DNA from: Perkinsus olseni
Lineage: Eukaryota
Reading direction: 5' to 3'
Assembly: GCA_013115125.1 (NCBI GenBank)
Contig: JABANN010000038.1
Coordinates: 62,001-111,242 of the forward strand
DNA length: 49,242 nt
This document shows positions 1-36,600 of this stretch, piece after piece. The translations under genes were made by a program, and so were the position numbers. The notes under the pieces were generated by a model. It was not told the DNA's origin. It ran no database searches and saw only the letters and a program-made list of their open reading frames with translations. The first letter of the stretch is position 1. Each line of letters begins with the position of its first letter.

Positions 1-3000
1 TTACTTTGCTCTCTTCTTCCCACCGCACTTGAGATTAAGGTAAGTCGTGAACCTCGCCGCGAAGGGCTTGCTGAATCTCTCCGGAAGATTCTCCCAAGCA
101 ACGCCCGTTGTCGGCTCGAAATCCAGTTGTTTCTCAACGCGGACAACATCAGGGGACTTGGCTTCTGGAATTCTCCCTCCGAGATCTTCCGAAAAATATT
201 CTCCCAGAAGCCCTGGTTTGCGGACCACCTGAACAGACCAGTGAGATCGACACCCAAGACAGCTACTTCCACCCTGGGCGGATGCGGAGGTGGGGAAGTA
301 CAGGTAGTGGTTCACAAGGGCTCTTGCTACATAAATCCGACCATAGAAGAGCACAATCTCATAATACACCCTCCCAAACGTGACTAAATCTCAGAACGAC
401 AGACGCTAGCTCCTGCGGGCACAAAGTGCCGCGCACCATCGTCCCGAAGGCGCAACCGATCGGCTATAGTCGTGATGAGGTGTGCCCGTAGCGGCGACAC
501 ACCAAATGAGGTTAGCCGAGCGATTCCATGACGGGCAGTGAGGTACGTATCCGCCTGACGTCGTATCCTCGCTATTCGGCAGACATCGAGAGTAGCAAGG
601 AACATGAGCCCTCATAAGAGCTTTGTTAGGATATCAAGAACTCGACGCTCACCTCCGATTGCTCCACTGAGTGCTGGAGAACGGCTGCCGGAACCTTCAT
701 TTGCTCATCCCCTGTATCCGGGCCAGAGTAAAGGAGATTAAGGTACCCCTGTGGGCCCTCCGACGCCGAAAAGAATCTGCATAGTTGAGCAGAGTGGACG
801 GCCTCCATTCGGCAACTCGCCCTATTCCCGAAGCAACTTTGGCATCCGACAATCAGACCGCGGCTCGTGAGCCAGCCAATGACCCCTCACGTCACTAACG
901 TCTACGTTTTACTGCCACACTTACTTTAACGCTAGCCAAGGCATGAGAAGACTGCTACAGCAAGCAGCAGTCGAGAGCCGTATAGCCATTCCAAGAGGAG
1001 ATTCCACTCCGATCGAGGAGCGCGGCGCGGGAAAACCAGTTCGAGCCTCGAGGCGAGTACACTAGAGCACCGTCCACTCGCGGTTGAAGTACTTGTGAGT
1101 TCTAACACCTAATCCCGCCCGGTCCCTGCCTACTGAACAGTAACTCTGTGATTCCCAGGCATCAGCTGCGTCGCTCCGCTCGGACTCTCACTCTTATTAT
1201 CGACCACTAGTTTATCGTTCACATACATAAGAGATGGTCCGCCGCTGTCAAGGGTAAACGTGTACTCTCCCATCTTCGCAATGACCAAAAATGCCGACCA
1301 TCTGACTGCCACGTTTTGGCGCAGTTTTTCGGGCAAATGCCCCCAGCTGTCAGGGCCCTTGCAGATCTCCTGTTCAACGCAAGCATGGTCCGGCCGCAAT
1401 CCCATCAGACTCGGCACTCGATCGCCAACAGACATCTCGCCAAAACCAAAGTACTCGGTGAAAACACATTCAGGGAAATCTTTCTTCAGCAGAGCTCGTT
1501 CGCCCGTAGCCGTACTAGCGAGAGTCGTCAAAGATATCCTCTCCATGTCTATCATATTCTTGCCAAGATTTAGTTTGATAGCCGTCCTCGTGCGCCCTTC
1601 TTTCGGCTGCGCTATGTTCCACATCCCAACAGCACCCGAGCGGAGACTGCACATCTGGTCCGCTTTCAACACGAGCTCGTCCTCAGTGACCTTCCCAGTC
1701 GGTTTCCATTCCCACACGCCACAAAACTCCATCACAGCATCATTTTCATCCTTCGGACGAACCCAATGAGCGGGAACCTTCTTGTCCATCCCACCGTGGG
1801 AGTACACGATATCATACGTCCCATTGGCGTAACTCTCCTCCACCTTCCCGCTGCACCATCGGCCTTTCCCCTGGTAATTGACCATAACAACGTCCTCAGC
1901 CCCCAGTCGTTTCATCGCGAATCTGAATAAGCGGAGCGAAGCTACTGTAGTAAGAATCACCCATTCTGACACCACCACTGGTGAAGCCCTCACCTGCCAT
2001 TCCAGAAGGCTTGGTCGTATTCGAATTTTTTCCGGCTTTGGAGGACCACTTGAAAGCCCGACATCTCGTTGATCCGCTGCTTGGCCAAGTCATCTTGTGC
2101 GAGATTACTCACAGCCCGAGACGCCTCTCCCTGAGTCAAAACTTAGCCTTAGCAGTCGTCAGAAAGGCACGAACTGCACCCCTAACCCTTGATAGGAAGC
2201 GGCGTATCGAACACCCGAATATCGAGGAGGAACCCACATTTTTCGTGCGGGGAATGAGGAGAATCCCTTCAGCATCATGGAAGTGTCGAAAGAAGCGGGA
2301 CCTCGAGTCCCAGCTACCTGCAGGAGCGCTGAATCTGTGTGGTTGTTCATAACCTCGACGACCATCTTAACCACCCCCGCCTCTGTAAGCTTCCGGCACA
2401 GATCCACGTCCTGGGCCAGATTGGCCACTGCTCGGCAGGCGTTTTCTGCGACCGTTGGGACGCTCATGAATTGTTGCAGCCGTTCCGCCAAGATTTCGAT
2501 GCCCCCCTCCCGAGCGAAGGCAGAGCGAGCGCGGCCGCCATTCAGCGTTGACGGGCTGGTGCAGTTGGCGAGACACTGGAAGGCTGTTGCTGCCTGAAAA
2601 AATAGAGCATCAAGCGTCATGGCAACCAATCCTGAGATGCGCACCTCCTCATCCTCGTCACAGTGGTGGAAAAGGTATCTTACTAAGGGGTCGACACTTT
2701 GCACCGCCATAATGGTAGAACGAGCCGCCTGCGGTCGCCAGTCTGGGAAGCTCAGGAGGACCAGTAAGTCAACAGAGCAGGCGGCATCGCAATGCTTCCA
2801 ATAACCGGCACAGTTAGGCCTGACAAGAGAACAGACGATTAGACACGGCTGAGTTCCAAAAACCCAACTATCGATGGCTTCAATGACCAAGACAGATAAG
2901 AAACCTACTGAGAGTGTCAACTCAGCGTACGAGGAAGTTACCAGTGGACGCAACGACTTAGCCAATCTCAAGTTGCGCAGTACCACCCGAGCAGCCATCT

Positions 3001-4065
3001 ACCTCGATAGTGCCGGCCGAATGCTCTCCGGTGCTTTCATAATCTCCGCTAACATATCCGCAGTACTCGTGACGTCACTCAGAATGACCACATTGCTGCC
3101 GGCTTCGCTGGCCTCCTTCAAATCCTTCTGGACTTGAGGATTTTCGAAAACGCCAGGCCGCAGGATGACAACAACATTCAGGCTTTCCGCGCTCTTGCTA
3201 GGAACTGAGGGGAGAAAACTTGCATGAGCGGGAGCTCGACGAGGCAGTCCCATTCACCGCGAATAAACTACTGCCCTAGCTACCGCTGACCTCCGCCAGA
3301 CCGAACCACAACACTCGAAAAGAAAAAGGCTTCCAACCTGTCATGGGATCCTCTTGCGGCGCTGCTTCCTTTTTGTTATCCTCCTTTTTAGTATCCTTCT
3401 CTTTCTCAGCCAAGGCATTGCGACACAGCATCGTTCGGACCTAAGGTTCTCATCTATGAAAACCCAAACTAACAAAAAAAATTATGAAAGAAGCAAAACT
3501 TTATGAAAATTATTTATGAAAACCCGGGTTCTTTTTTTCTTTTTGGAGAGAAGAATCCCGAACCCGCAGAGTGCAGAGTAAGCGGTTTAGCTTGCAACTT
3601 CGTCGAGCCGCACCGCCAGGGCCGAATGATCGGGATGATCAACCCACTCTTCCCACTCACATTAGGTGTGTGATCTCTGATGCTCTTGAGCAAATCCAGA
3701 GCCATAGATGTGCCCTCCTTAGATCGATCGTGGCAAATGAACAGGTCATACCTGATTCCATAGAAAAAACTTCCGAACCGTTCCAGTTGAGGTAAACACC
3801 GTAGCCGCCCAAAGTGGCAGAACGGGAGCTCGTCGAGTTCAGTTGAGCCGTTGCAGACCACGAGCTCCGTGTTCCAAGGTCCGGCCAGATCTACAGCTTA
3901 TTGAAGCCTCATAAAATAGCTATTCTCAGCTACAGCGACGGATTACTGGACAAGTTCAATCATCTGAATGATTCACGAGAATGCAAATGCGCTCACTATC
4001 GTCGTAAAATTCCACAAACTTAAGGTTACGACGCCTTTTCGACACACAGTAAGATCCTGTCACCG

Positions 4066-4103
<38 letters not shown>

Positions 4104-6852
4104 GTCACGGCCCAGCCTCACGCTTTCTGGAACCTCTTTCCCTTCATCATGTGCTTGGCCTTATCCACTAAATACTTATAATGGATGCCCACATCTCTGT
4201 CGCCTTCAAGTATACCTGTCGTTAAAACAAGGTCGCCCAAATCGCCTTATTTCAAAAGCGTGGAAGTGACAAGAAAGAAATCAGCCGTAGCCCGATCTAC
4301 CCATTTTCTTGGAGACATAGGCATGGTAATTGTGGAAGGTCGTGAATGATATCTCGCTGTCAAGCGACATGCCGGGATACCTGAGCACCACACCTGCCTC
4401 GAGCTACTCTAACCACCTCAACGTTTTCTACAGCATGAGCGAGAATATCCTCCTGCTGATCATCTCACTGTACTGACCTCCGAGCGTTTCAGTGATGACC
4501 TACGGTGACATCTCATGCGCGGCGGGGTAGTACGAGGCCCTCACTCTATCAACTTTGACAAATTGGTTCCAATCGACGACGCCCTTGCTCTCGGTGTCGT
4601 AAAGTTCGAATAAGCTTTTGATGTTAGTGTCGATGTCAGAGGGCACCCTCACGTTCCTCTTAGAATCTGCTTTGGCCACCTTGTAACTGCGAAAGCCAAG
4701 AGAGTAGCCGAGCCACTCAAGTTCGCTCCCGGCACCCTACATCTCCATGCGGCCATCGATCGGAAGGTCCATTGCTTTACTATTCTTATACTGCAAGCGA
4801 AAGGACGGTACTCCAGCCGCGCGAGACCTGAACCGGGAAGCGATCAGACCGAAACAACGAATGCTCTCAAAATCCACTCCAACCACCACCATGGCCCCGT
4901 CCACCTCAAGGTAGTCCTGACCTACCTCGGTGACTTATTGTCGTCCATCTTCACGACTCCTGGTAGCAACAGCCTCCTCACGGCCGCTGCTGAGTGCTCC
5001 TGCATATACGAGTACGTCGGGACTCTGACAATAAAATGGTGAGAAGCGGGTTGAGCGCGCCTTGTGTCCACCTTTGAAGGCAGTCCCTGTGGACAAGATC
5101 TTCATATCGCAAGAGCTCAGCCTCAACCCCTTCTATAGCGTCCGTTACGACATGTAGTAGAGTGATATGAACCTGATGTGCGGTCGGACGCGGAATATCG
5201 TACGCGATAAGATCATAAATGCGACAGGCAAAGTCGCGCGCCACGAAATTACCTCCTGCTCCAGTGCAACTCTAACCTCTTCGCAAAGCTGCTCATCAGT
5301 GAAGCAGTTGGACGTTACCAGTATGACCAGATTGAAAGATTCTCTCACGTTAGATACCTGCTATCACGTCCATCTCGTCATGAAGTAAAGCCCGCCACTA
5401 CCTTAGCGTTCTCTGACATGCTATTGTATCCCGAAGAGACGCCGTTGTTAAGTGCCACAGATAGTGCCGGTGCCAGTATTTTAAGTTGCCTGAAAAATTA
5501 AAGATTCCTTCGCATTCGACTCTCCTGCTGAACGAATATAATTAGAATTCACAGATTTGTCGTCAACAGAACTGATCACTTGAGATCGAGAAAGCAATCG
5601 AAGGCTGGCGTGAGGGCTCTGCCCCCCTCCCCTTTCATCGGCTTTTTCCTGGGTTCTAATTCACAGGCATGGCTCTATTCCATCTCACCGTGAGGACACA
5701 CGAAAACTTTTCGCTGTTCTTTGAATTTTCGACTCATCACACGAAGATGACGTTTCCCATGGCCCATCAAGGTTGCCCGCTTACTTATGCAAGTACTCCG
5801 CGGTGGATGGGGCCTTCTCAGACACGATATGCTTAGCACAAGTTATACAAAAATCATAACGCTTCCGCACTGAGGAGCGCATCCTAGCCTTCGATACCTG
5901 CTCAAAAGAGGCGTTCGCATGGTTGCAGCTATCACTTAGAAGCTTTCTCGGAGCAGACAGGGATAGTCGAATATCGAGGGCTGATGATTCCTCGGAGCAA
6001 CGGCCCCTTATGGGAAGCCTCCAAGCAAGATGCCGGTGGTTGGTGGAACAAGAGAAAGCAAACGGACGCCCCCCTAGCCTATCCCTCCAGGGATACTAGG
6101 GGATGTAGCATTACCTTGGCGCCAAAGCGGAGGATATCGTCCATGACTTTTCGAGACTTGGCCTCGCGTATCTGATCTACCTTTTCTTGGTCGCTAAGTT
6201 TGAGGCAAGTCAATAAGAGGTCATTGCATTGGTCGAGCAGATCAGATACCTGCCGGGGAAAGGCATCGCGATTGCGGCTACAGTGGAGCAAGGGTGGAAA
6301 CCACGGGCCCGGCATCCCCGGCCGCGAGTGAACTCGTGAACTGCGCAAACGAACGACAGTGTTCGGTCCTACATATACGACGTTCTTCTTCCCCGTCAGA
6401 GTTTCCCTATGAGCCTCAGGGGCACCGTCGAAAGCCTCGGTGAGCGTGGGGCACGTGGCGATCCACTGCAGTAGCACCTGCTCATGAAGGAGTACCAACA
6501 GCGAGGGAATATCATCTTTACTATGTTCTTCTTTCCCGTAATAGCCTGCTCTAGTGCATCGCACACGATCTTGTTCTTGAAAGTCTCGGGACCACCTAAA
6601 CGCATCTTTCACCAGCTGCACGACCAGAGTAACCCACATATCAGGAAGGCGACATTCTGCGCTTTGATTGCGTAGCTGTTGTTATCCGACTTCGGCTCCT
6701 GGACCTGCGATCAGGCCCACTTCTATCTGTGAAGGGAAGGCCTTCCTTACTGTAAATCCCAGTATGGTGAGCATGCTCCTGTAAATGGTTTTCACATTAT
6801 GAGCTGCCTCCAGGCACTCTGTGTCGTGGACGATTATCAAGTCGTCCGACAT
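1..6852 (-). CDS. Multi-exon multidomain protein: TIR-like x3, EF-hand pair, ARM repeats, Tudor/Agenet-like, PA14 x2 or more (3' end beyond window)
   Basis: Manual splicing from ATG 6852: MSDDLIIVHDTECLEAAHNVK...LGFT|VQEP...VAFLIC|GPETFKNKIVCDALEQAITGKKNI|VLLQW (TIR1); RYDFCITCAKH...ESFNLVILVTSNCFTDEQLCEEVRVALEQE|VHITLLH (TIR2); IKSLFELYDTESKGVVDWNQFVKV (EF-hand); RYDLFICHDRSKEG...ESLNVVVILRPGVFENPQVQKDLKEASEAGSNVVIL (TIR3); AREGGIEILAERL...NACRAVANLAQ...TEAGVVKMVVEVM (ARM); VMVNYQGKGRWCSGKV...GTYDIVYSHG (Tudor-like); VAVRWSAFL...GEYTFTLDSGGPSLMYVNDKLVVDN...LLYSGPDT and PGLLGEYF...FAARFTTYL (PA14). Most junctions are GT..AG and keep frame; a few (about 3750-4050, about 4860-4990) are uncertain. 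Confidence 0.75.
4066..4101. repeat. (CAT)12 trinucleotide microsatellite, intronic in the TIR/PA14 gene
   Basis: 12 perfect CAT units, directly visible. Confidence 0.95.
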
Positions 6853-6999
6853 ACTCTACGAAGGAAAATCTGAGACACTTTTCAAGCACGGGAGTACAGG
6901 GCCGTGCCGTGCAGTACTTTCTACCGAACGAAGACGGCTAAGTAAGTCTGAGAGCGCAAACTCCAACCGACAGACTAGCAGCCCCTCAGTGCCATGGCA

Positions 7000-9366
7000 C
7001 TCCTACTCTTTAGTCCAGTGCAACTTTTGCTTTGCATGAGGAACGGTAATCTAGTTGACGCAGAGTACGGATGCCCCGGAAATGCTCAGCGGTGCAACTT
7101 CGACTCCGTAAACGCTCAGCAGCTAGCACTGCCGACCTATGTTCTACCCCCCATGCATGATACGAGGCGATCGCTGTGTGTTTAAGGGCGAGCGAGATTA
7201 AGAAATGCGCCGGCGTTAAGGAAGTCTAAGATTGCAAGATTTCCGTCGGGGCCTTGCATCCGTAATCCCTAGATGGCGGCGGCGCCACGAAAGCTTTCCT
7301 CGCCTTCATAGCAGACGAAGCGATGACGCTCTCCAGTGGGTCCGCAATCTTCCCGTTGCGAGGTTCCGCCCCTGTCCCTGTTCAATACCCAACATACCCA
7401 ATTGCGGGATCTTATCCACTCCTTACTAACTCAACGGCGCGACCAGCAACAGACAACTGCACAACACTTGTACACCATTTCACACACCAATCGTAAGTTC
7501 ATGCCAGACTTTAAGCTTTTTGCAGAAGAACTCGTGCATCAGCTCGAAGGTACCCCTTGCTGACGAGTGTGCGCTCACGAATTCTCTGAATCCTCTCACG
7601 TCGGCAGAGTACAGGCCGCCAAACAATCGATCAGCAGCTTCTCCACAGTTCCTCACTTCGCGTGTATTGACCTCGTCAGGCAGAAGCGTCGCGAGCTGGA
7701 TGTTTGTACTGAAATGATGACCGGCCTGTAGAGTAGACGACCCAGCGAGGCAGCCAACGGCATCAAATGCGACGAAACGCAACGATAGCAAACGAGATTT
7801 GAGGGACGACCGCGACCACGAGAGATAACAAAGAGGTTGCCAGAGATTCGACGGCGTCACTTACAATGCGCGAGCTTCACCGTTGCATTCAACCCTGTCC
7901 CACTCATAGTGCGTAGGGGTCTTTTGGAACGCGAAGGCTTTGCCGGGCTGATCCTGGACCTCCACAATGCAGAACAGAGAAGGCAGGCCATCTGGGACGT
8001 CCGCCCTACTGTGCTCCTCCATAACCACGAATTCCTGGAAAAGTACGAGTGCCAGTTACGGACCTGTAGTGGGTTAGAAAGCCCCGACTTACTGTTAGCA
8101 TCGGGCGATTGGCCACACCTCCCCTGCCACCCCGCGGATGCTTCGTCAAGGCTCTTGCCGTCTTGCAGAAGTAAGCATGACTGATACGTGCTGTATCAGT
8201 GATGGGGTTCGTAGCCAGGAGCTCAGGTTTGAGGAAGTTCGCATACCCGTACACGTTTCGGTCGTAGAGATCGCGGAATATTCGTTGGGTTAACGGGCCG
8301 CAGAGCTCCCTCGAAAGCATCTTCAAGTCCACGTGCCACCAACTACGAAAGGCGACAAATCACAATTACGAAAGAAATCCATGAGCGTTTTCACGTTTCA
8401 TGATCTCACGGTTCCCTTGCCATTCGCAATGGCATTCGACGCCTCTACGGCCGAGCGGAGCGTGTCAATCCCAGACTTACAACATCCATCCCTCATTCCC
8501 GCAAGGCCCGAAACCAATGTCATACCCTCCTGGGGATGCCTCGACGAGGAAAACTTTCGTTGGATTGGCGGCAAGGGAAAGCACGCAAACTGTCGTCTCC
8601 GCCTTTATGCCAAGCTCCATAGCTGAGCTCACGATCGAATAACCCTAAGAGTGAAATTGTGAGGCGGAACAGTGCGCGCCGTGTAGTCGCTCACTTGCAA
8701 ATTGTATGCACAGGGCTCAGGCTCGCCGTAAGGACCAAACTCCATCATGACCCGCACAAACCACTCGCCGGTCGACAGCCCTGTTCTCTTCACGCTACTC
8801 CAGGCTTCTCTGTTGACTGGGTTCGCCAAAAGGGCATCGTACAGAAGGGTGACGGCTTCTTCACAGCTCTGGACGGGAGCGTGGTTCGCCGATTGGCTGA
8901 CTCTAAATCGAAGGGTCGTGTCGCGCGCGCACCTAAGAGAGCTGGAAGATCAGGGAACCCACGATTCCGTTAAGAACCGATAATAGGTGGGTGATCTCGC
9001 CCGAGCGACGTACATCAATAAGGTCGAACGACCGGCAACTTCTACACGATCCAGAGCGAATTTCGTCGGGGATTTAGAAAACTGGAAAGAGTCTGCCGAT
9101 TTGTCTGCCTTGAACACACATTGGAGAGTGTCCTCTAGCTGGGGCGACGAGATCGCCTCGACGGAATACCCCTGAAAAGACAGTGCCAGCTTCCACAAGA
9201 GAATGCTGAATATACGCACTTCGAGCTTAGGAGGGCCAATTTGTGTTCTCTCTCTTTTGGCTTCTTTAAGCTCTTTGCCCCATCGCCTTTTTATCATCTC
9301 GCTCAGTCCAGGAGAATAAACACAGGGTAACATCCCCACCGCAAAAAGAAGGTGGAACGAGAACAT
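7000..9366 (-). CDS. Hypothetical multi-exon secreted protein (lineage-specific); 3' end uncertain
   Basis: Hydrophobic N-terminus MFSFHLLFAVGMLPCVYS. Series of minus-strand ORF pieces (8950-9366, 8629-8829, 8006-8332, 7480-7860) separated by short GT..AG segments. No family recognised. Confidence 0.5.
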
Positions 9367-14339: not shown

Positions 14340-15802
14340 TCAGCCGAGCTTGCCGAGGGTCGCCTTCCTCATCATGTGAGCAATTGAGCGATCAACAAGA
14401 GCATCGACTAAGCCAGCGACGGTGAAAACACCGCCAACAATAGCACAGACTTGGACCAAAAAATGCGCAAACGACTTGCGCGTTTCAACAAATTCGACAC
14501 TGACGGTGGAAAGATCGTACCGGAGGTAGAGTGACGGTAGCAAAGGATTAGGTACGACGTTGCTGTTAGCCGTGAATTGATTTACTCTCTGGACTCCGGA
14601 GGCCGATATAAAAGTGGTCGGCACGACTTTGGTATAGTATTCGAAAACAACAGGCTCAAGTTTTCCTAGTTGATTCCGCTTGACATCCTTCGCCAGGCCG
14701 TCCAAGGGAGCGAGGATGTCAGCGTGCGGCCAGGCGACGAGAGCTGACCTGGTCAGAAAGTTGACCGCGACAACAGCTCGAAGGCTCGTCTCACCGTATC
14801 TCATCTTCGTCTCCAAATGACAAGTGATTAACTCTGTGAGACATATCAATTTCATAGCGCTTCTTATCATCATCGCTGTTTGCTCTCGGATGATACAACC
14901 CAGATCCCCCCAAGTAGCTGCCATACCCACCAAGAAGGAAGGAGACAGAATGAGACGACAGGTGGATATGCCCAGGGACCTGCCAGGCACCAGCCTCAAC
15001 CAGAGGCCGGTGTCTCACGGATAACGCTCACTCGATTGACTTTGACGAAACCGACAAGGCGGCATCCTTCCCTGTCATCCAGCATCTTCCGAACTCGCTG
15101 AGCGCTCTCGCCTGCGACACCGCTCCCACCAAACTAACGAATGCGATTCCAACGGCGCCAAGTTTGATACGAGAGCCTCACCAGCCCCTGGCTCCACAGG
15201 CCTTGGCCGAGCATACCACTGCTGCGACTCGCCTTCACTTCGTCTTTCGCGATCACTTCGCCCGACTCCGTTAGTCTACGTGCACTATCCATGCGCTTCT
15301 ACCGTATCCAGCCGCCTCACCTCTCGGCGAAGAAGTGGCCGCTGACTTCAACTGAATGGCTGCCCATCACATCCTGGGCGTCGAAAGAAAGCAAGTCACA
15401 CGGCAATCGAGGGAAGGAAATGTCGAGGTTAATCTGAGCAACGCTAAGTACCGAACGATCCGGTGGGGTGAAGGGACACTCTACCTGTAACTGGGAGTCA
15501 TAATCTTCCTTATTGTGTTCTATGAGCATTCTGGAGGTCCTTTGGGGCGTGAGGTAGTCTATCAGCTCGCTGATGAATAGATATCTGCGGAGTCCGATGT
15601 CCTCGAGCCGCCCTCTCCGAAAGATGAAGCTCAGTCGCAGAGTTCCGATAGTGCTCACATTGCAACAACCAAGGTGATGACGCTGATTGTGGCTCCTGTA
15701 GTGGTCCCCTCAGTGAGATCTGATGGCGGACGCGGTCCAACGCGGGAGAGGCGATATGATCTCACCTCGCGGGAGTTTCCGGTACATGTCGAACGACTTC
15801 AT
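14340..15802 (-). CDS. ER-Golgi intermediate compartment protein (Erv41/Erv46/ERGIC family), multi-exon
   Basis: MKSFDMYRKLPR|DLTEGTTTGATIS...LFISELIDYL...INLDISFPRLPCDLLSFDAQDVMG...GCRLVGFVKVNR|VPGHIHLS...DMSHRVNHLSFG...FEYYTKVVPT...LRYDLSTVSV...FAHFLVQVCAIVGGVFTVAGLVD...LGKLG*. Confidence 0.93.
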
Positions 15803-27677: not shown

Positions 27678-30600
27678 CTACCTCGTAGCAGTGGCTTCGA
27701 TCCATTGCTTGATAACATCACTAAGGACATTAGGCAGCTGTGAGACGTCTTGTATGACCGCATAGAAGGGGAATGGGAAATCCTTGTTGGAGAGGAAAGG
27801 AGCCATCCTACTGCGGCCGGTAGGATCTCGAACAACTTCCTTCAAATTGTAGATAGATCGGCCAGACTCCGCTGCTTCATCGACTATGATGAGAACCGGT
27901 AAACGGTTCTTGCTGAGCATGTTCTGCACCGACTGTCGTACAGCCTCCTTGTTGAAGCGGCCATCTGTCACGATAACAGCTAGACAGGCTTGTTTGAAGT
28001 CACGACCTGCGACTTGACTGAACTGCTCATCACAGTCGTCCAGAACGGCGGGTAAAGAACGAGACATTGAACCAGCGCTCTCCTCGTCAAAGTTGAAATG
28101 TTGTAACAGCTCGGGCAGATTCAGCGGCGCAGGCGAGGCAAGTGTCCTCAACGGCCGGACTGAGCTGCCGAACGAGCTGACTCCGACCGTACCGATTTCG
28201 AGACGGGACATAGCTTGAGTGATGGCATGAACAGCACACAAGGATAGCTCGCCAGACTGGTTAGACCGCATCGACTTCGTATTATCCAAGCAAACAATGA
28301 CGTTATGCTCTCTCTTGCTTGGCTTGTTTCTTCGAAGCCATATTCTGTCTTTCCTGTAGTCACTGGCCACCCATGCGAGAACTTTACGCATGTTGAGTCT
28401 TTTGCCCGTCTTATAGTCGCCTTGCATACCACCACGCTTGGTGGGCTCGAGGACCATACGCAACCGTTCTGTGAGCTCACTGCACACGCTCGAGGATAAA
28501 CGGTCGATATGCTGCAGTCGGTCGTTGCTAACATCGCCCTCTCCGCCAGCGTTGTAGATGGTATCCTCGCCCTCACCACTCATTTTGACATCGCCGTCTT
28601 CATCAATGGATGCCGTTAGAGCCTGCGGGTTTCGGGAGACTTCGGAACGCAAGGGTGCCTCGGATTTCTTCTCAGCCGCACCCTGCTCTTCGCTCGAGGC
28701 CTCCGCTTCTTCCTCGTCCTTCTTCTCCTCAGCCTTCTGCTTATCCTTGAAGGTCTTGTCCTCGGCAGACTTTGGCGGGGCAGGACCTACAGCTGTGGGG
28801 TCGAAGTTTTTCTCACATGAGCGTCTGCGCCTACCAAGTCCCTCTTTTTCTTCTTCCCTTTGATCCTCTTCGTCAACATCCATTGCATCAGCTTCAGAGG
28901 CTGCCTCATCTTCGTCTTGCTCGAGCTCTCCAGCATGCTCAGCGCTCTCGCCTGTGGCCTGCGCTACCCCTTCTAGCTTCGAAGATTCGTCCTGGGCCTG
29001 AATTGAGCACGTGGTTTCACATTCGAGATCCGACCCAGCTCCCTACGGCATCTCTGTTCAGGCCCTGTTCATCCTTGTTCTCATCATTTTCTCCGCCAGC
29101 CTGCTCCTCACTATCCTCGGCAGACTCATCCTCGTCCATCAATTGAATGCGCTTGAGCCACTTCTCCACCTCTTCAACGGAATCCTCAAGAGGGTTGGGC
29201 GGGGCTGATGGTGCCTGGCAAAGCAGCGAGACATAAGCCAGGCTCGGCTATCCACCTCCTCGATGTCGGATCGTCCAGAACACTGTAACAGTCTCACTGC
29301 CCCAACAACCATAGTACTGGCAACATCAAGTGGCATCCCATAGCAATTGGGCGGGAATAACAGTGAGAATAGCAACCCCAATATCACCCTGCTCTTCTCT
29401 TGCTTGCTGGACTGCCCCTGAGGCCCACTCTCCCGGATCGCCGCACCTTCCTGATCTCTACCGGCATCCTAACAATCAAGCGATAGTCCTCGTACCATAA
29501 CGATATATTCTCTCACCTCAGCACCCTGGGGCTGGTCTCTCGTAGATTCTTCCTCATTATGAGCATCATTATCTCTACCTCCCGTGAGCTCCTCGCCCTG
29601 GGTACCTGCATCCCGAGCTCGCTCACTACGACTGTCTCATGGTAACTACCTTCATCGTCTTCAGGATTTCCCGCGTTCTTCTGCGGTTGTGGCGCAGCTT
29701 CCGCGGCATTCTCCATGAGAGTGTCCTGATCCTCAGCAGCTTCTGCCGAGTTTAACTTGTCAGTCTCATCTTCTGGAGCCGTCTCAGCCTACGACGAATG
29801 CGTTGTGGCAGTACCGGGGGTGTTCTCCCTACTACCTCCTCCTCTCCTTCGTTCTCCTTATCCTCGTCATGCACTGACTTGGCGTCCTCGTCGTCCAAGT
29901 CAGCATCCTCCTCATCATCAGTAACAGCATCGTCGGAGTCGCCCCCAACATCGCCATCGAGAGCCTGTCGGTGAAACAATCCCCGACCAGCGGCTTCGCT
30001 CGGCCCTCTACCATATCATCATCAAGGTCCATTTCGTCCTCATCTGCCTCACCATCCTGTCGAGCGTTCTCTCCATTCTCATCACCCTCCTCGCCAGAAT
30101 CTGGAGGTTCACGGAGTCTCACGCGTTGAATCGATCATATATTTACCTTGATCTTCCTTAGCCTTGGCTAACGACGCTTCGAAGGCTTCATCGTCCTCAT
30201 CGCCGCTTTCCTCGTTGATACTCCCTAACATCAATCGAACCCGCTTATTCAGACAAGCCTAGCGACGTAAACTAGCTTGTTGCAGTCTTAGAGCTGCCAA
30301 CCACGAATGACATATCAAACGAAGACAAATTTCCCTCGGAGGACACAACGGTATTACCTTCGCCTTCATCTTCCTTTCCGTTCTCATCGCTTTGTTTTTC
30401 ATTATCCTCGCTTTCTTCAGACTCCTTCTCATTCTCACCGTCTGAGCAGACCATACCACCTCAACCCCCCAGCAGAGCGAAACGATCTTTTTACCATTTT
30501 TCTCATCTGCTTCTCCCTCTTGATCTTCAGCAGCAACAACATCGGTCTCAGACTGCTTCTCTCCTCCTTTAGTCTCTATATTCTCCTCCTGTTGGTTTCC

Positions 30601-33600
30601 ATCACCATCTTCGTTCTCTGAGTCAGATCCCTACACAGGAGACAGGTCGTCACGCAAGTCATGGCGAATACGGGATACATGAAGCACTCGAACAAGCGAT
30701 TTTCGAACGGGATTTCCACCGCGTTGAATCAGTATTACCTCCTCGTCCTTATCCTTCTCCTCCGGACCCTTCTGCTTTTCCTCTATCTCGCCCCCCTCCT
30801 TCAGGTCGACATCGCCCATCTCTCTATCCATGTTATCTTCCTTATCTTCATTCTCATCCTCCTCGTTGGGTTCTCCTGACACTCACGTCATCAAAATATT
30901 CCCGTCTGGCCCGATCATCGTTATATTCTGTAACCCCCTCAGCAGTCCGGTAAACACACTCTTCTCTGTTTCAGTCGACACGCTAGTATTTTGGGCACCC
31001 GTCATCGAAATCATTCGGACCGTCATCGACGTAAACACGCTCGTAGGGGCAACCCACCCGAAATATTACTTTGAACGTTCTCCTCAGGGCCTTCAACATC
31101 CATGATATCTCCGACCTCAACTCCCTCATTCTTATCCTGCTCCGTATCCTGCAATATTCACATCAATCACCGGCCGACCACCCGGCCTACCTGAGGTTCC
31201 TGCTGTGACTGCTCCTCCTTCTTCTCTTCCTGTACCGTGTCGAACATATTCTTGTCTTCAATCTCATCACTGACATCCCTAGCCCCAGAGCCTTCTCCCA
31301 AGCCCGTGCCCTGTTGCCAGTCGGTCGTGCCTGATGAGAAACCAATCACGTGCTGAGTCCTCCACGATAGGTGCCTCCAGTTGCTCTCATAGTATCACTG
31401 GGCGAAGGGGCAAGAAGTACCGCAAAATCGGTTGGAAATTCATGAACGACCTCGGGCCTCATAGAAGTTCTTGGCACGCTAGCTGGGTATTATCAGGACG
31501 AGTGGTACGCCAAATCGCCGGAACCACTACCTTCTCGTCCCTCGCCTCCCTCGGCATCTTCTCCTTCAGCTAAGCTGAGACCTTCCTGATGCAGATGGGT
31601 GACGAATTTGAGCATGGAGTGCAGCGCCATCAACGAGGCATCCAACTTTTCCTCGACAGAAGTCACGGAAGTGGCGAGGAGACTGGTCGGGGCACTCGCC
31701 GGGCTGAGGAGAAAGAATATTTAGCACGGATGGCCTTTGTTGAAAACTTCTACATCTTGCCCTCCTTGAGATTCCTCAACGCTTCAGCAGCATCATCACC
31801 ATCACATGGCAACTCCCCACTGACGATCTTGGCCAGACACTCAGCCAAATCTACCGCTCCAGGGGCGGCCTCTACCGGCGCGAGCTCAACGGAGAGACCA
31901 GCAGCCGCCGAGGAGAGCTCAGATGCCACTTCTTCAAGTCTCGGCACCAGAGACAGACATGACGATGAGCTGAGGTACTCCGCCATCGCTCTGAACACAG
32001 CCGAACATACTAACTGTCGAATCGATAGAAACGACACTGTGAAGCTCTGCCGAGTCCATCAGAGGGGATTGTGATAAGAATCCCTAGCAGGAGCTTACCC
32101 CGAGGCTTCCTTCAGTGTTCCGATCCACTCCTTCCTGACCAGCAAGGGCTGCGTGTCCCCTTCGGATGGTCTGTGCAGCAGAGACTCGATTTCGGCGACC
32201 TCCGGCGCGTGAGCGTCGAGACAGGCTCTCACAACAGCGGGAATCGGCGGAAGGGTGTCTGAGGCTATCGCGGACGCCTGTGCCTGGAACCACGGACAAC
32301 GGGCATGTCACCACTAACCGAAGAAACGTCGAGAGGGTCCCACCGCTGATTCGTGGACCGCCGAGTCCAAAAGCTGGACCAATGATACGATGCCCTCCTG
32401 GCCGTTGGTCACAATAGAGTCCACCTTCGAGAGTACGACGCTCGCCTCCTCCATACGTTGAAGATAATGGCGACGAGCCACTGTATCAAGCAGGCGATGG
32501 AACACTTGAGCGACGTCTGAAGAGATCAGTATACCATTCTCAGTGGGAGGTAGGGGCACCGAGGTGAGCGTGTAACACTCGCCCTGTCCACACACAATTG
32601 TCCACTTACGTTGCATCCACCACTTCAACTGGTCCATAGTGAGATCCAGATTCGGCGGAGTCTTGTGGAGCGACGATAACTTCAACCATTCGTGAAGACA
32701 TATCTACACAATTCGTAAGAGTCTTCCGATCCATCATTCGAAAATGGATACACGTTGAGTCGTACATTGAAGGTTCGGCTTCGTTTAGAGTCATCTCCCC
32801 CTTCGCTCATCAGAGGCTTCATTGCCATCACTTCTCTGGAGAGATCGATGTTGGCCGGGCTGCCCGGCGCGAGGGGCATCTGATACATCACGACATCTCC
32901 GACTGCAGATGGTCGCTATAGACAGCCCCGGGCGGCTGAGCGATACCTCCTCGTCTATGAAGTCCTTGAGTTGCATCATCTGCCTCTTCTTAGCCTGCAC
33001 CGGATTGGGCGGTTGAGCCGTCAAGAAGGCCTTAGTGTCCGCTAGGGCCTCGCACAATTCCGTGCATTCCATCTCGGAGCCCAGCTTCAAGGGCGGTGTC
33101 AGTGTGATTGTGGCCAGCACAGGATCAGTAGGGGCTAATACCGCTGAGTCAAACCTGACGACAGGCATCAACTTCCTTCGCCCTGGGCGGCCGGTAACTT
33201 ACACTCTGGCTGCCTTCGCTAGCTGCTTGTGGGAACGTTTCGTCATATCACGGAAGGCTGCATGATTGGCAGATGGTCCGAGGTCCCAGCGCGCGCACTG
33301 GATGAGCTCTCGCACTTCCTTCTCCAATGCCTGCAATGAGAAGCGCAATGAGACACCTCCATCAATAGGGAAGCAGGAATACAGTAAGGCAACTAGAAAT
33401 CGAGAACGACGCGAAATAGAGTTAGTATGTGGCGCACCTCACGGTAACACCATGTACGCGTAGAATAGCGGTCCGATCAAGTAGCTCCACTCTCGCTATA
33501 GTATGCAGCTCCTGCCCACTGCCCACCTTTCTGTGTATCTCCATCTGCTTGTCTACGTACGGCAGCCACACCATAGCCATGCCGTGCAGGTGTTGAAGAA

Positions 33601-36600
33601 CAGGTACATGCAGCATATCGCCGACAGTCTTGATGATTGCAACACGTTCGGAGAACTGCACCAACGGGGAGGTGCGAAGGAACCTGGGCAGACACTACCG
33701 TTACTTTAGGCACCGAGATACGACAAATCACCTCATGCCGGTGTCAAAGAGCTCGGCCTTAAGCTTATCGTCAGAGCCTTCAATTTTAGTGCTCTTCGCT
33801 GCCGACCAGAGACGAGCAAACCATCGGCCGCGAGCCTTGGAGCGCCAGTAGGCCTCTCGAGAGGCTCGAAGGTCTCGCCAGGAAGCAATCTACGATAACA
33901 AGAAAAACACATAAAGCAAATAGAAATTCCTCCCACAGGAACGCCATCAGCGATGAAGAAGAAAACTGACACAATTTCCGGAGAAACCAGCATCGCGCCG
34001 AATGAGGATCTCCGATAAGCATGCTGCCATGGTACGAAGGCCAGGTGACCTCCGAGCCCGAAAGTCGTTTCAGTCACGCCCGAGCATACCTGCATGGCTC
34101 TGAAGGTTGCCACCGAGCGCCTAACACTGGTCACAGCGCCAGCACCAGCCTTGAGCAAGTGCGACGGAACAGCCCGGACCAGGGCGTCATAGCGATCCAA
34201 ACACTCTTCCAGCATCAGCAGGGCGGACATGGGACTGGTCGATCCAAGAGTGCAAGACTCTAGGAACTTCTTCACTGCCCGCAAACAGGCATCAACGGCG
34301 GGATGACCTTCCGGAATAGCCCGGTTGATCGCTTCCAGGTGGTTGAGGAGCAGGGTGAGCGGGTGGACGAAGTGGCAGTTGAGGAGATCGAGAGCTCTAC
34401 CGTCAGCGGACTCCAAATAGAAAGACAACTTCTCAGTCGCTCGAGCACCTTTGCGGTTAATAACGTCCCGAAGGCGCACCTGAAGAGAACTACAGTGAAC
34501 GGGGAGGAAGCGACGGCGGTGATTTCGCAAACCGGACTTAACGAGGGAAGAGTTCAACTCTGAGCCAATGCAGACGGACGACAGTGCGAGCCGTGATGGC
34601 AGGTAGAGCCTCACCTTGAGTTCACTCTCCCTCTTCAGCCGTCTTCTCTCCAGCTGCTCAAGCTCATCGAGGGTCATCTCGCTTTCATCCTTTTCTATGC
34701 CCTCGTCAGCCTCTTCGACCTCCTTCTCTTCTTTCTCAACAGACGGCATCAACTCCTCTCCCAGAACCTTTCTGTCGAGATCTCTCGTGAGACGCCTCAG
34801 CCTGCCCAAAACCAACGGTAAGCCATCTCCATTGATCCATGGTCCAATGATGGCATCCGCCGGGGCAGAGTCCCTGCCCGTCACCAGCTCATCATCCTTT
34901 ATGCTCTTGAGCAAATCTCCCCAGGCTTCGCCAAGAAGCTCGTCCATGAGGCCCTGCGCATCAGCTGCATCATCCTCATCCGTCACAGCATGGACCAGCA
35001 GCCCGGACAGGTTGTCAAGCGTGCGGAGCGCCTCCGCACTAGAGCCTAGCTTAGCCCGGGAGAGCCCCATCTCATCATCATCGTCGTCGAGCACCTCGCT
35101 CGAGTCCTCATCTGCCCCGCCGATATCAGCAATGACATCATCACTCTCCAGCTGGCGTATGACTCTGCTATGAGATGCATCCTCGAACAGCTTCACGTTG
35201 TACTCCTGCTGCAACTTCTCGAGGTCATTATCATCCTCATTCGTGAGCTCTCTCATCCGCTCAATGAAGGTGACCTCGTTCTGTCTGATCATACCCTCGT
35301 TCTTAGCGCTCGCTTCTTCTTCCTCCAGCCGCTCAAACTCCGATACCAGCGCATCCACATGCTCCAAGGCGGCATCCCGGCCATCGTCAACTCGGTCCGC
35401 TTGAGAGCGGGCAACGCCGAACGAGCGCAGGGCGAGTGAAGCCACAGTGGGATCGTAGTCCCGGCCATCATCCGAGCCTTGTGCGGTGAGGGAACTAGTT
35501 CGCAGGGGAAGATGGACCCTGAAAAGCACGTCCATAAGGATATACACAGGATAGAACTTCATGCTTGAACAAGGCTCCCGGCCCGAGCTCCAAATAGAGA
35601 GGGCCGCTTCTGGAAGTTAACTCAGGTAAGTCTGTGGTGTGGAGTGGATATGTTATGAACACTATACGGAGCTCACAGGAACAGATACTATCAAGATAGA
35701 CGACTCACCTTTTAAGTGTGTCTTTGACGTGTGGAGCCCTCTTGCCCTTCTCCTGCTTGATGGCGATAGCGGCGACTCCCGACGCCACTGCGAGACAATC
35801 TAGTGCTAAGGGGCGGGTGATGTCGGCGTGCGCCGGGAAGGAGGTCCTGTGAGATGAAATCACAGGGTGCCATCGAAGCGGGTGCATCCTCACGTCAACG
35901 TCTCAGCTACGCTAGCAGCGCTCTGTGCCAAAACCATGGCCTCGTCAAGCTGCAATCCCTCTTTCCGCCACCGACCGCTGCCGTCAGACATTAATGGCGC
36001 CACCACTGACTGGACGAACCCGTGAACGATGGTCCTCAACTCCTGACAGGCAATCAGGTGATTGCAACATGACAAGTGAGTTCCAATCTCACTCTGTAGT
36101 TGGCTTCCTCTCTATTGATATCAGCAAGCCCGCTGCTTTCCCAGACAGCCTCATCCACAGCCTCAGGGCGACCGGCCGGGATCTCCCGCACGCACAGAGT
36201 GTTCTCCACTTCCGATACGCTTCTCGTCAAGCTGCCAAGTGCGCGGCGTAGCGAAGCGATGCCTGGGAGAATAGGAGACCGTTTTCGAGAAGTGCGACGC
36301 CTAAATTTCCGGCCAACGACGCCACCAAAAGCGACTCGTTATTGCAACTGCCAAAATTTTGATAGATACGTAACTTACCACCAGCTCCCACAGCAGCCAA
36401 ATCAAGGCAACGTTGCCTTATGTCGAGCTCATTCTCGAGATCTGTGGTGAATCGATGAGCGTGGATGCACCAGGCCGAGCGAGACTCGGTAGGGTCCGTC
36501 TCCAGGTGAAGAATCTGACGAGGAAAGCGTTAAATACATACTCTCACAAAGGACGGCTTACTCCTGCTCCCAGAATGAGGTGCCACGACGCGGCCAGCGC

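Follow-up and report, generated by a model that had tools for sequence, protein, structure and literature searches.

We analyzed a 49,242-nucleotide stretch of the Perkinsus olseni genome (contig JABANN010000038.1, positions 62,001 to 111,242 of the forward strand; hereafter the window, whose own numbering is used throughout). Its positions 1-6852 were assigned, with a probability of roughly 85%, to the N-terminal ~1,195 residues of a minus-strand dynein heavy chain of ~4,700 amino acids, in which the usual tail is replaced by a chain of modules. These modules are ordered as three TIR units and an EF-like helical region, followed by ARM repeats, a Tudor-like barrel, a small beta domain, two PA14 domains, and a WD40 propeller abutting the linker; altogether, the TIR, ARM, Tudor-like, PA14, and WD40 modules fill about 1,700 residues in place of the canonical tail. 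A first-pass annotation of this DNA had taken the modules for a self-contained glycan-sensing TIR signalling or immune receptor. That proposal did not hold, since the same reading frame was found to continue into the WD40 propeller and a complete dynein motor; because these make up the remaining three quarters or so of the protein, the modules represent the tail of a motor that moves on microtubules. Such a dynein heavy chain, with a TIR-bearing modular tail, is real, conserved, expressed, and apparently undescribed.

Continuity of the tail with a dynein motor

The window was revealed to be eukaryotic DNA with a GC content of about 0.52, in which long genes are broken into many short exons. 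A protein search with the 319-residue exon at 1130-2089 identified P0001 (1,591 amino acids, 98% identity), the protein encoded by the window itself, together with five JGI relatives at 44-47% identity. The 90%-identity cluster of P0001 contained 14 members, the 10 named ones all being from P. olseni, and two further members were the gene models P0013 (4,950 amino acids) and P0010 (4,888 amino acids). Exact mapping and tblastn placed residues 257-1451 of P0013 on 24 minus-strand exons running from 6855 down to 4 with 100% identity, and the window therefore carries only the first quarter of the gene, namely the first ~1,195 of ~4,700 residues. The start codon was located at 6852-6850 (the methionine of MSDD), and the gene leaves the window at position 1. 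The same MSDD start was found in P0001, in the P. chesapeaki protein P0106, and in all four full-length dinoflagellate open reading frames (ORFs; P0109, P0110, P0112, and P0114).

As revealed by Pfam searches, the PA14 domains of P0013 and P0010 are followed by a WD40 propeller, DHC_N2 (E 8e-125), a partial AAA_6, AAA_7, AAA_8, the microtubule-binding stalk (MT), AAA_9, Dynein_heavy, AAA_lid_11, and Dynein_C. The motor modules, all of which lie outside the window, gave E values from 1e-46 to 1e-141 in P0013, P0010, and P0106, and in the last of these AAA_6 was matched over its full profile (1-327/327, E 1.6e-141). The linker, the six AAA+ modules, the stalk, and the C-terminal domain by which a dynein heavy chain is recognized were accordingly all found in one polypeptide. 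In addition, the AAA1 Walker A (GPAGTGKT) and Walker B (DEFNR) motifs were present in five of the five full-length members checked, including that of P. chesapeaki, and to judge from its motifs the motor looks catalytically competent in close relatives. As a separate observation on the nucleotide sites, a simple Walker A pattern found the AAA1 and AAA2 P-loops and none at AAA3 in the dinoflagellate proteins P0109, P0110, P0112, and P0114; the AAA3 pattern was present in the Perkinsus, Vitrella, and animal chains.

Searches with the N-terminal 640 residues returned, among other relatives, proteins named 'DNAH7' in Symbiodinium necroappetens and 'Dynein heavy chain 7, axonemal' in Cladocopium goreaui. 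Nine proteins with the N-terminal region were found, and those long enough reached DHC_N2; P0020 (1,871 amino acids), for instance, is continuous from TIR unit 1 into DHC_N2, and in both P0003 and P0020 a single frame spans the WD40/DHC_N2 junction. The reverse search with the linker-AAA region identified P0106 (4,850 amino acids, 87% identity) in P. chesapeaki. The four full-length dinoflagellate ORFs, P0109 (5,036 amino acids), P0110 (5,044), P0112 (5,027), and P0114 (5,029), were each located on a contig of 15.2-15.5 kb, and P0112 was also found as an MMETSP transcriptome peptide under taxon id 89957 (Polarella glacialis). Since ORFs of some 5,000 amino acids fill 15-kb contigs and one of them is transcriptomic, the tail and the motor are encoded by one and the same mRNA in dinoflagellates. 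The family was seen in two Perkinsus species and several dinoflagellates and, as far as sampled, is limited to these.

To place the motor among the dynein classes, the C-terminal 1,783 residues, represented by P0012, were compared with PDB entries. The highest scores were obtained with DNAH7 (1,700.6 bits), DNAH12 (1,676.9), and DNAH3 (1,656), and the top three Chlamydomonas inner-arm chains (8glv) scored 1,650-1,668 bits; DNAH1 reached about 1,560 bits, DNAH6 and DNAH2 about 1,280, and the outer-arm chains listed at most 933. The linker-AAA2 region showed about 45% identity to animal DNAH7. A maximum-likelihood tree was then inferred by a quick method from ~1,600 residues around AAA1 in 37 rows hand-picked from the 120 listed. 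In this tree the 13 family rows formed one clade (Shimodaira-Hasegawa-like approximate likelihood ratio test, SH-aLRT, 100) with a stem length of 0.34, which fell inside an alveolate clade (SH-aLRT 100) as sister to a group with an Amoebophrya protein (99). Canonical chromerid and Symbiodiniaceae chains adjoined the family, and the animal, fungal, and stramenopile DNAH7/12/3-like chains lay outside. The motor belongs to an alveolate branch of the DNAH7/DNAH12/DNAH3-like single-headed inner-arm dyneins. Within the family clade, the 6,406-residue JGI protein P0132 formed a long branch; its tail comprises about 3,300 residues before AAA1, with WD40 matches and no PA14 in its precomputed Pfam list, and it may be a second tail variant.

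The tail was shown to be unrelated to that of canonical chains. BLASTP comparison of the tail protein P0001 with a full-length Vitrella inner-arm chain and with lemur DNAH7 gave best E values of 1.7 and 1.5, respectively, that is, no similarity. In P0106, DHC_N2 begins at residue 1717 and the final WD40 match extends to about 1640; with only about 75 residues between them, there is no room for a canonical tail. The helical tail by which single-headed inner-arm dyneins dock on the A-tubule with actin and p28/centrin is accordingly missing here. The absence of DHC_N1 was also considered as a test of tail loss and was dropped as uninformative, because canonical DNAH7-type chains likewise lack it in the precomputed lists.

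The exon structure derived from the P0013 mapping is as follows; the coordinates are approximate to within 2 nt in either direction where a codon is split.

Exons 1-6, minus strand: 6852-6748, 6701-6633, 6590-6519, 6474-6370, 6246-6112, 5894-5784
Exons 7-12, minus strand: 5488-5399, 5354-5250, 5169-5071, 5023-4925, 4826-4743, 4685-4542
Exons 13-18, minus strand: 4496-4431, 4379-4299, 4213-4121, 3750-3658, 3437-3339, 3205-3002
Exons 19-24, minus strand: 2818-2645, 2593-2318, 2130-1993, 1921-1133, 775-650, 225-4

Evidence for transcription was drawn from the public run X1, labelled 'RNA?' and kept as contigs, in which half of the sampled words of window positions 1-9000 were present. The X1 contigs aligned to the window with at least 15 joints of the form CT..AC on the plus strand, i.e., GT..AG on the minus strand. 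Of the joints listed, 14 were the introns between exons 1 and 15, all inside one 1,509-nt contig that spans TIR unit 1, TIR unit 2, and the EF-like region, and one X1 contig continued beyond window position 2. The first-pass annotation had described one minus-strand gene for an intracellular protein; this was borne out insofar as 24 exons were recovered that coincide with its placement of the units, 14 of the introns being backed by RNA, but the gene does not stop with the PA14 domains and runs on into the WD40 propeller and the motor. At the 5' side, P0013 adds five upstream exons (8748-7579, minus strand, 256 amino acids), one piece of which was tested and gave no Pfam match. An RNA contig was found to be unspliced across 6987-7708 and hence does not use the predicted 7579-to-6855 junction of P0013. 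Since, in addition, the orthologues start at 6852, the five exons probably make up a small gene of their own that lies upstream and was erroneously joined to the dynein in the public model. The intron that separates exons 15 and 16 contains an ATC/GAT-type trinucleotide repeat (4057-4110), whose open frames read as poly-Asp, poly-His, or poly-Ile.

Among described dyneins, DNAH7, DNAH12, DNAH3, and the Chlamydomonas DHC2-type chains (8glv) resemble the present protein in the motor domain (1,650-1,700 bits, all motor modules), but differ in the whole tail, which showed no detectable similarity, and the Perkinsus/dinoflagellate family forms a clade of its own. According to the main text of Kollmar (2016, PMC5100056), the outer-arm DHC4-alpha chains (Chlamydomonas alpha type) carry a Kelch/IPT/filamin N-terminal tail. 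They are thus a precedent for an axonemal dynein whose tail was exchanged for unrelated globular repeats, although they belong to the outer-arm class and employ other domains. According to the same text, one diplomonad orphan is the sole exception among the new classes and orphans, whose tails otherwise all align to canonical tails. The text also describes class-10 heavy chains that bear seven WD40 repeats in their C-terminal region and have an altered AAA5, whereas the propeller of the Perkinsus protein lies just N-terminal to the linker of a canonical motor. The passages on these tails mention neither a TIR nor a PA14 tail, and Perkinsus does not appear in the main text. DNAHX was considered as a relative and rejected; in the part of its description consulted (PMC11785096) it is an animal outer-arm derivative, unrelated to the Perkinsus family. 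In the one paper checked in which 'PA14' occurred alongside a dynein heavy chain, the term denoted the Pseudomonas strain PA14 and not the domain. No description of a dynein with a TIR or PA14 tail was found in the full-text literature searched, in line with the earlier remark that no described protein of such architecture was known, although the supplementary species lists of Kollmar (2016) could hold these genes as 'orphans'. The family members are named hypothetical or unnamed protein, DNAH7, or dynein heavy chain 1 or 7, axonemal (some marked UniRef), and the tail has gone unnoticed because the records shown carry only such hypothetical-protein or dynein/DNAH7-type names.

Modules of the replaced tail

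The portion of the tail encoded in the window was divided into the following features, all on the minus strand.

6193..6852, minus strand: TIR unit 1 (exons 1-5, model residues 1-135)
4937..5885, minus strand: TIR unit 2 (exons 6-10, model residues about 166-326)
4148..4634, minus strand: helical region with one EF-hand-like loop (loop about 4598-4560; EF-hand_6 below threshold)
2741..3750, minus strand: TIR unit 3 (exons 16-19, model residues 486-645), the most SARM1-like unit
1993..2593, minus strand: ARM repeats (exons 20-21; from Pfam and a homologue model)
1748..1921, minus strand: small beta-barrel, suggestive of Tudor/Agenet (start of exon 22)
1475..1747, minus strand: conserved beta-rich stretch, fold unassigned (between the Tudor-like barrel and PA14 domain 1; from alignment conservation)
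650..1474, minus strand: PA14 domain 1 (end of exon 22 and exon 23, with the intron 776-1132 inside)
4..225, minus strand: N-terminal half of PA14 domain 2 (exon 24, P0013 residues 1378-1451)

The rest of PA14 domain 2, the WD40 propeller, and the dynein motor lie outside the window.

By sequence, the TIR units were scarcely recognizable. No TIR-family match was obtained with Pfam at E<=1 on any of the 10 minus-strand ORF pieces of window positions 1-6855, and among family members ThsB_TIR (best 3.6e-4) and TIR_2 (best 4.8e-4) were each detected in three of seven, below the Pfam cut-off. A sequence-profile search of the PDB with the N-terminal 646 residues gave nothing significant (best match a de novo designed protein, E 0.0059; TIRAP, E 2.9), and a search of the ESM Atlas with the N-terminal 660 residues gave no usable match. 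The window's own N-terminal 646 residues, taken as a stretch of P0013, were therefore examined as an AlphaFold2 (AF2) model built from an alignment with six relatives. The predicted local distance difference test score (pLDDT) averaged 64.2, with about 70-90 for the three alpha/beta units (67-87 for unit 1) and less than 50 for the stretch between units 2 and 3. Foldseek against the PDB placed C. elegans TIR-1 (E 8.5e-6) and human SARM1 (E 9e-6) at the top of 40 matches at E<=1e-3, with SIS-domain isomerases among them.

Structural alignment of the individual units gave a consistent picture. With VIA-align, unit 3 matched the SARM1 TIR domain with Z 15.4 (root-mean-square deviation, rmsd, 2.6 A over 124 residues, 20-22% identity); unit 2 (residues 166-325) matched the TIR domains of RUN1 (Z 12.8, 136 residues), L6 (Z 11.2, 135 residues), and MAL (Z 10.7); and unit 1 matched the Hydra TRR-2 TIR domain (Z 12.2, 114 residues). 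A search of 48,161 chains, independent of Foldseek, aligned unit 1 with the TIR domains of SARM1 (Z 14.9, rmsd 2.4 A, 123 residues), TIR-1 (Z 14.7, 128 residues), and IL-1RAcPb (Z 13.2, 124 residues), GTPase-like folds first appearing at Z 11.4. For unit 2, the margin of the TIR assignment was small, because the best non-TIR fold, EF-G, reached Z 10.6 as against 12.8. In the predicted models, all three units thus adopt the flavodoxin-like TIR fold, their best matches all being TIR structures. The predicted two-copy complex of unit 3 scored 0.01 and was uninformative either way.

Remote homology was detected in addition. The N-terminal profile, searched against 1.84 billion proteins, retrieved 80 at E<=1e-3, mostly short family fragments. 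One of the matches, P0097 (E 1.6e-4), possesses a SAM domain and a TIR_2 match of 26.1 bits (cut-off 28) and is related to human SARM1 with E 1.7e-12. Alignment of each unit with this SARM1-like protein by hhalign gave probabilities of 88.6% (E 2.7e-6) for unit 1, 69.8% (E 4.1e-5) for unit 2, and 93.1% (E 3.2e-7) for unit 3. Because fold matches (Z 12.8-15.4) and remote profile homology agree, the assignment of three TIR domains is supported, and the first-pass annotation proved right on this point. The N-terminal profile also matched a unit-3-like stretch at residues about 440-600 of P0089 (2,541 amino acids) and P0098 (2,561 amino acids), giant proteins with LRRK2-type ARM repeats and a RING finger; these represent another undescribed setting for a unit-3-like TIR domain.

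The helical region following unit 2 had been annotated as an EF-hand pair, which was not confirmed: a single loop was detected, EF-hand_6 giving E 0.0029 and 0.025 (below threshold), and the region was modelled with a pLDDT of 26-56, mostly under 50. Centrin and calmodulin were matched with E 0.03-0.04 in the PDB profile search, and position 12 of the loop is Gln, not Glu, in both Perkinsus and the dinoflagellates. The ARM repeats, on the other hand, were readily confirmed by Pfam (ARM_ARMC5, E 3.9e-10; Arm, E 3.4e-5, 24.2 bits against a cut-off of 20.6). The homologue P0005 (584 amino acids, 16-row alignment, mean pLDDT 73.2) was modelled for this part of the tail, and its ARM solenoid (residues 1-131, pLDDT mostly 82-92) was superimposable on a designed ARM protein with Z 13.4 (rmsd 2.2 A, 124 residues, 24% identity).

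As for the barrel that follows, the earlier designation as Tudor/Agenet-like is suggestive. Agenet was matched in four of four sequences, although below threshold (best E 0.001, 18 bits against a cut-off of 27; E 0.056 for the window ORF piece), and the best PDB match was the SPF30 Tudor domain (E 0.078 over 51 residues). In the P0005 model, residues 145-191 form a five-stranded barrel with a pLDDT of about 60, which was scarcely probed by the fold search. The adjoining beta-rich stretch (P0005 residues 205-285, pLDDT 44-60) was assigned to no family.

Both PA14 domains were clearly identified, as previously annotated. Pfam PA14 scored 36.9 bits (E 3.9e-9) for domain 1 of the window and 36.9-48.4 bits across the window and its relatives, against a cut-off of 24. 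Domain 1 of P0005 (residues 286-430, pLDDT 61-87) matched the Marinomonas PA14 sugar-binding domain with Z 14.4 (rmsd 2.6 A, 138 residues), and domain 2 (residues 442-576, pLDDT mostly 82-91) matched the PA14 domain of K. marxianus beta-glucosidase with Z 12.4. The possibility of three PA14 domains was discarded, as Pfam, the model, and the fold matches all showed two. In fold, the pair resembles the PA14 domains of the Marinomonas RTX adhesin, the yeast Flo/Epa adhesins, and clostridial RsgI (Z 12-14.4), and the tandem PA14 of the clostridial anti-sigma factor RsgI (6qe7) was matched with Z 16.3 over 251 residues, but with an rmsd of 13 A. Whereas the known PA14 carriers are secreted or surface proteins, the Perkinsus pair is part of a cytoskeletal motor, and its Ca2+-dependent sugar binding is putative. 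A scan of metagenome contigs with the Tudor-PA14 alignment returned one 2.7-kb locus, L001.

Docking site, catalysis, and competing explanations

Few large proteins are as strongly conserved as the dynein heavy chains, whose tails are regarded as nearly fixed within a given class, since the tail holds the motor at a defined site. The family described here shows that a clade of perkinsids and dinoflagellates has long retained an inner-arm-type motor with a wholesale-replaced tail. The modules that make up the new tail are familiar from innate immunity (TIR), from adhesion (PA14), and from the reading of chromatin or ribonucleoproteins (Tudor-like). For the dynein field, it offers a natural experiment on how the tail specifies docking and regulation. 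For the TIR field, it provides a new eukaryotic setting, in which three TIRs stand in tandem and one has retained the catalytic glutamate. In addition, it draws attention to a lineage-specific protein of coral symbionts and of an important parasite of molluscs.

In the mechanism we propose, the C-terminal ~3,000 residues (linker, AAA1-6, stalk, and C-terminal domain) would act as an ATP-driven motor that pulls on a microtubule via the stalk, and the new tail would be the fixed end that sets the anchoring site and the regulation of the motor. The WD40 propeller may substitute for an intermediate-chain-like platform; the ARM repeats, the Tudor-like barrel, and the PA14 domains could provide binding surfaces for a lineage-specific docking partner; and the TIR units may serve mainly as assembly or scaffold modules. 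The subfamily would have originated from duplication of an inner-arm dynein gene, followed by tail replacement before the split between perkinsids and dinoflagellates.

Several points weigh against the assignment to a modular-tailed dynein. Among the X1 contigs listed, none joins the TIR part with the PA14 part and none bridges the whole gene. The window ends inside PA14 domain 2, and in the genome of P. olseni itself the link between tail and motor rests on gene models, P0013 and P0010, which derive from the same assembly or from sister assemblies. Both models are devoid of the first 181 AAA_6 positions, including the AAA1 P-loop, the match starting at 182; the missing stretch falls at their residues about 2500-2570. 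We read this gap as a fault of annotation or assembly, given that the region is present in the 87%-identical gene of P. chesapeaki, the adverse alternative being a lesion specific to P. olseni. Moreover, the tree was built by a quick method on self-selected rows, the EF-hand and Tudor assignments are below threshold, and the scaffold role of the TIR units, the cellular site, and the docking partner of the tail are proposals.

With regard to the cellular site, we lean somewhat toward a flagellum-associated, lineage-specific location, because the near relatives of the motor are all axonemal and both lineages have flagellated stages. The live alternative, given that the axonemal docking tail is gone, is a cytoplasmic, non-flagellar motor recruited to move or hold a cargo, possibly a carbohydrate-bearing structure bound by the PA14 domains. 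A tail that is unrelated to inner-arm tails and is built of adaptor-type modules would suit such a role, and the spliced RNA came from the one run found (X1), the life stage of its sample being unspecified. Nevertheless, every near relative of the motor in the tree is of the axonemal inner-arm type and both host lineages possess flagellated stages, so that we consider the cytoplasmic role distinctly less likely than the flagellar one.

A further question is whether the TIR units are enzymes. The catalytic residue E642 of SARM1 was located in 'vhkEivtal' of the P0097-SARM1 alignment, and its position was carried to the units via hhalign and an 11-member family alignment. At this position, unit 1 has Ala in 10 members and Gly in one (Ala in the window protein); the residue immediately before it is acidic in every one of the 11 members. 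In unit 2 the position is occupied by Glu in 10 members and by Asp in one (Glu in the window protein, E255 of the modelled fragment), and in unit 3 by Asp in seven, Glu in three, and Asn in one (Asp in the window protein). Since the catalytic Glu is kept in unit 2, replaced by Ala or Gly in unit 1, and mostly replaced by Asp in unit 3, unit 2 is, on alignment grounds, the only plausible canonical NAD+ hydrolase (NADase) among the three.

SARM1 and C. elegans TIR-1, the NAD+ hydrolases of ARM-SAM-SAM-TIR architecture, resemble the present protein in the TIR fold and in having ARM repeats in the same polypeptide. That architecture is, however, absent here: three TIR units lie N-terminal to the ARM repeats, whereas the SARM1 TIR domain is C-terminal, and no SAM domain was among the Pfam matches of P0001, P0004, P0006, or the seven aligned N-terminal family members. 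Unlike in SARM1, the catalytic Glu is kept only in unit 2 and the whole is fused to a motor; any enzymatic activity is putative.

In an enzymatic reading, at least unit 2 would cleave NAD+, perhaps producing signals of the ADP-ribose or cyclic ADP-ribose (cADPR) type. The motor would then carry or regulate an NADase, or the binding of NAD+ or nicotinamide mononucleotide to the tail would gate the motor as in SARM1; both variants are compatible with the identity of the protein as a dynein. Consistent with such activity, 10 of 11 members have Glu in unit 2 and 10 of 11 an acidic residue in unit 3 at the E642 position, unit 3 is nearest to SARM1 in fold, and an EF-like loop and ARM repeats adjoin the TIR units. 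Against it stand the Ala or Gly of unit 1 and the predominant Asp of unit 3, as well as the lack of conservation in unit 3, as read from the alignment, at the positions of SARM1 W638 and Y568/R569, residues which we take to be functionally important. Moreover, many TIR domains act purely as scaffolds. We regard the enzymatic reading as improbable. A more elaborate version, to which we give slightly less credit still, would be a motor that brings along a TIR signalling enzyme: NAD+ would be cleaved by unit 2, and by unit 3 in some species, under SARM1-style gating by the ARM/EF-like region, coupling ligand capture by the PA14 or Tudor-like modules to NAD+/cADPR-type signalling and to dynein force. 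The ligand in that case could be a glycan, carried either by an intracellular invader or by a structure of the flagellum or vacuole. If true, a generator of immune-type nucleotide signals would here be directly fused to a cytoskeletal motor for the first time.

Two other explanations were judged very unlikely compared with a modular-tailed dynein. A stand-alone cytosolic receptor, in which sensing by PA14, EF-hand, or Tudor modules drives TIR signalling as in SARM1 or a plant TIR-NLR (nucleotide-binding leucine-rich repeat receptor) with no motor, would accord with the real, SARM1-like TIR folds, the ARM repeats after the TIR units, and the catalytic Glu of unit 2. Its premise is contradicted by a frame that runs into WD40 and motor in two Perkinsus species and four full-length dinoflagellate ORFs, and by the fact that, among the proteins listed, no complete protein ends after PA14. 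The wrong merging, by gene prediction, of a TIR/ARM/PA14/WD40 gene with a neighbouring tail-less dynein gene could be suspected from the apparent merging of P0013 with the five upstream exons at 8748-7579 and from its faulty AAA1, but ORFs of 5,027-5,044 amino acids on 15-kb contigs span everything (one of them from the Polarella glacialis transcriptome), P0003 and P0020 run through the WD40/DHC_N2 junction in frame, and we know of no dynein that starts at the linker without a tail.

Other genes in the window

Three further minus-strand loci were noted in the remainder of the window. An exon at 14340-15014 belongs to an ERV/COPII-coated vesicle transporter gene (COPIIcoated_ERV, E 4.2e-19). 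The region of about 27678-45000 is occupied by a giant midasin-like AAA+ gene, which encodes a number of AAA_5 (dynein-related) modules, a Midasin AAA lid (E 5.6e-15), and then an acidic region; its last ORF (27678-29042) gave no Pfam match at E<=0.001 and resembles the C-terminal MIDAS/VWA part. At 46572-49240, where likewise no Pfam match was obtained, two tandem copies of a beta-rich domain, of no assigned family, are encoded with long Thr/Pro-rich, mucin-like runs between them and Cys-rich repeats after them.

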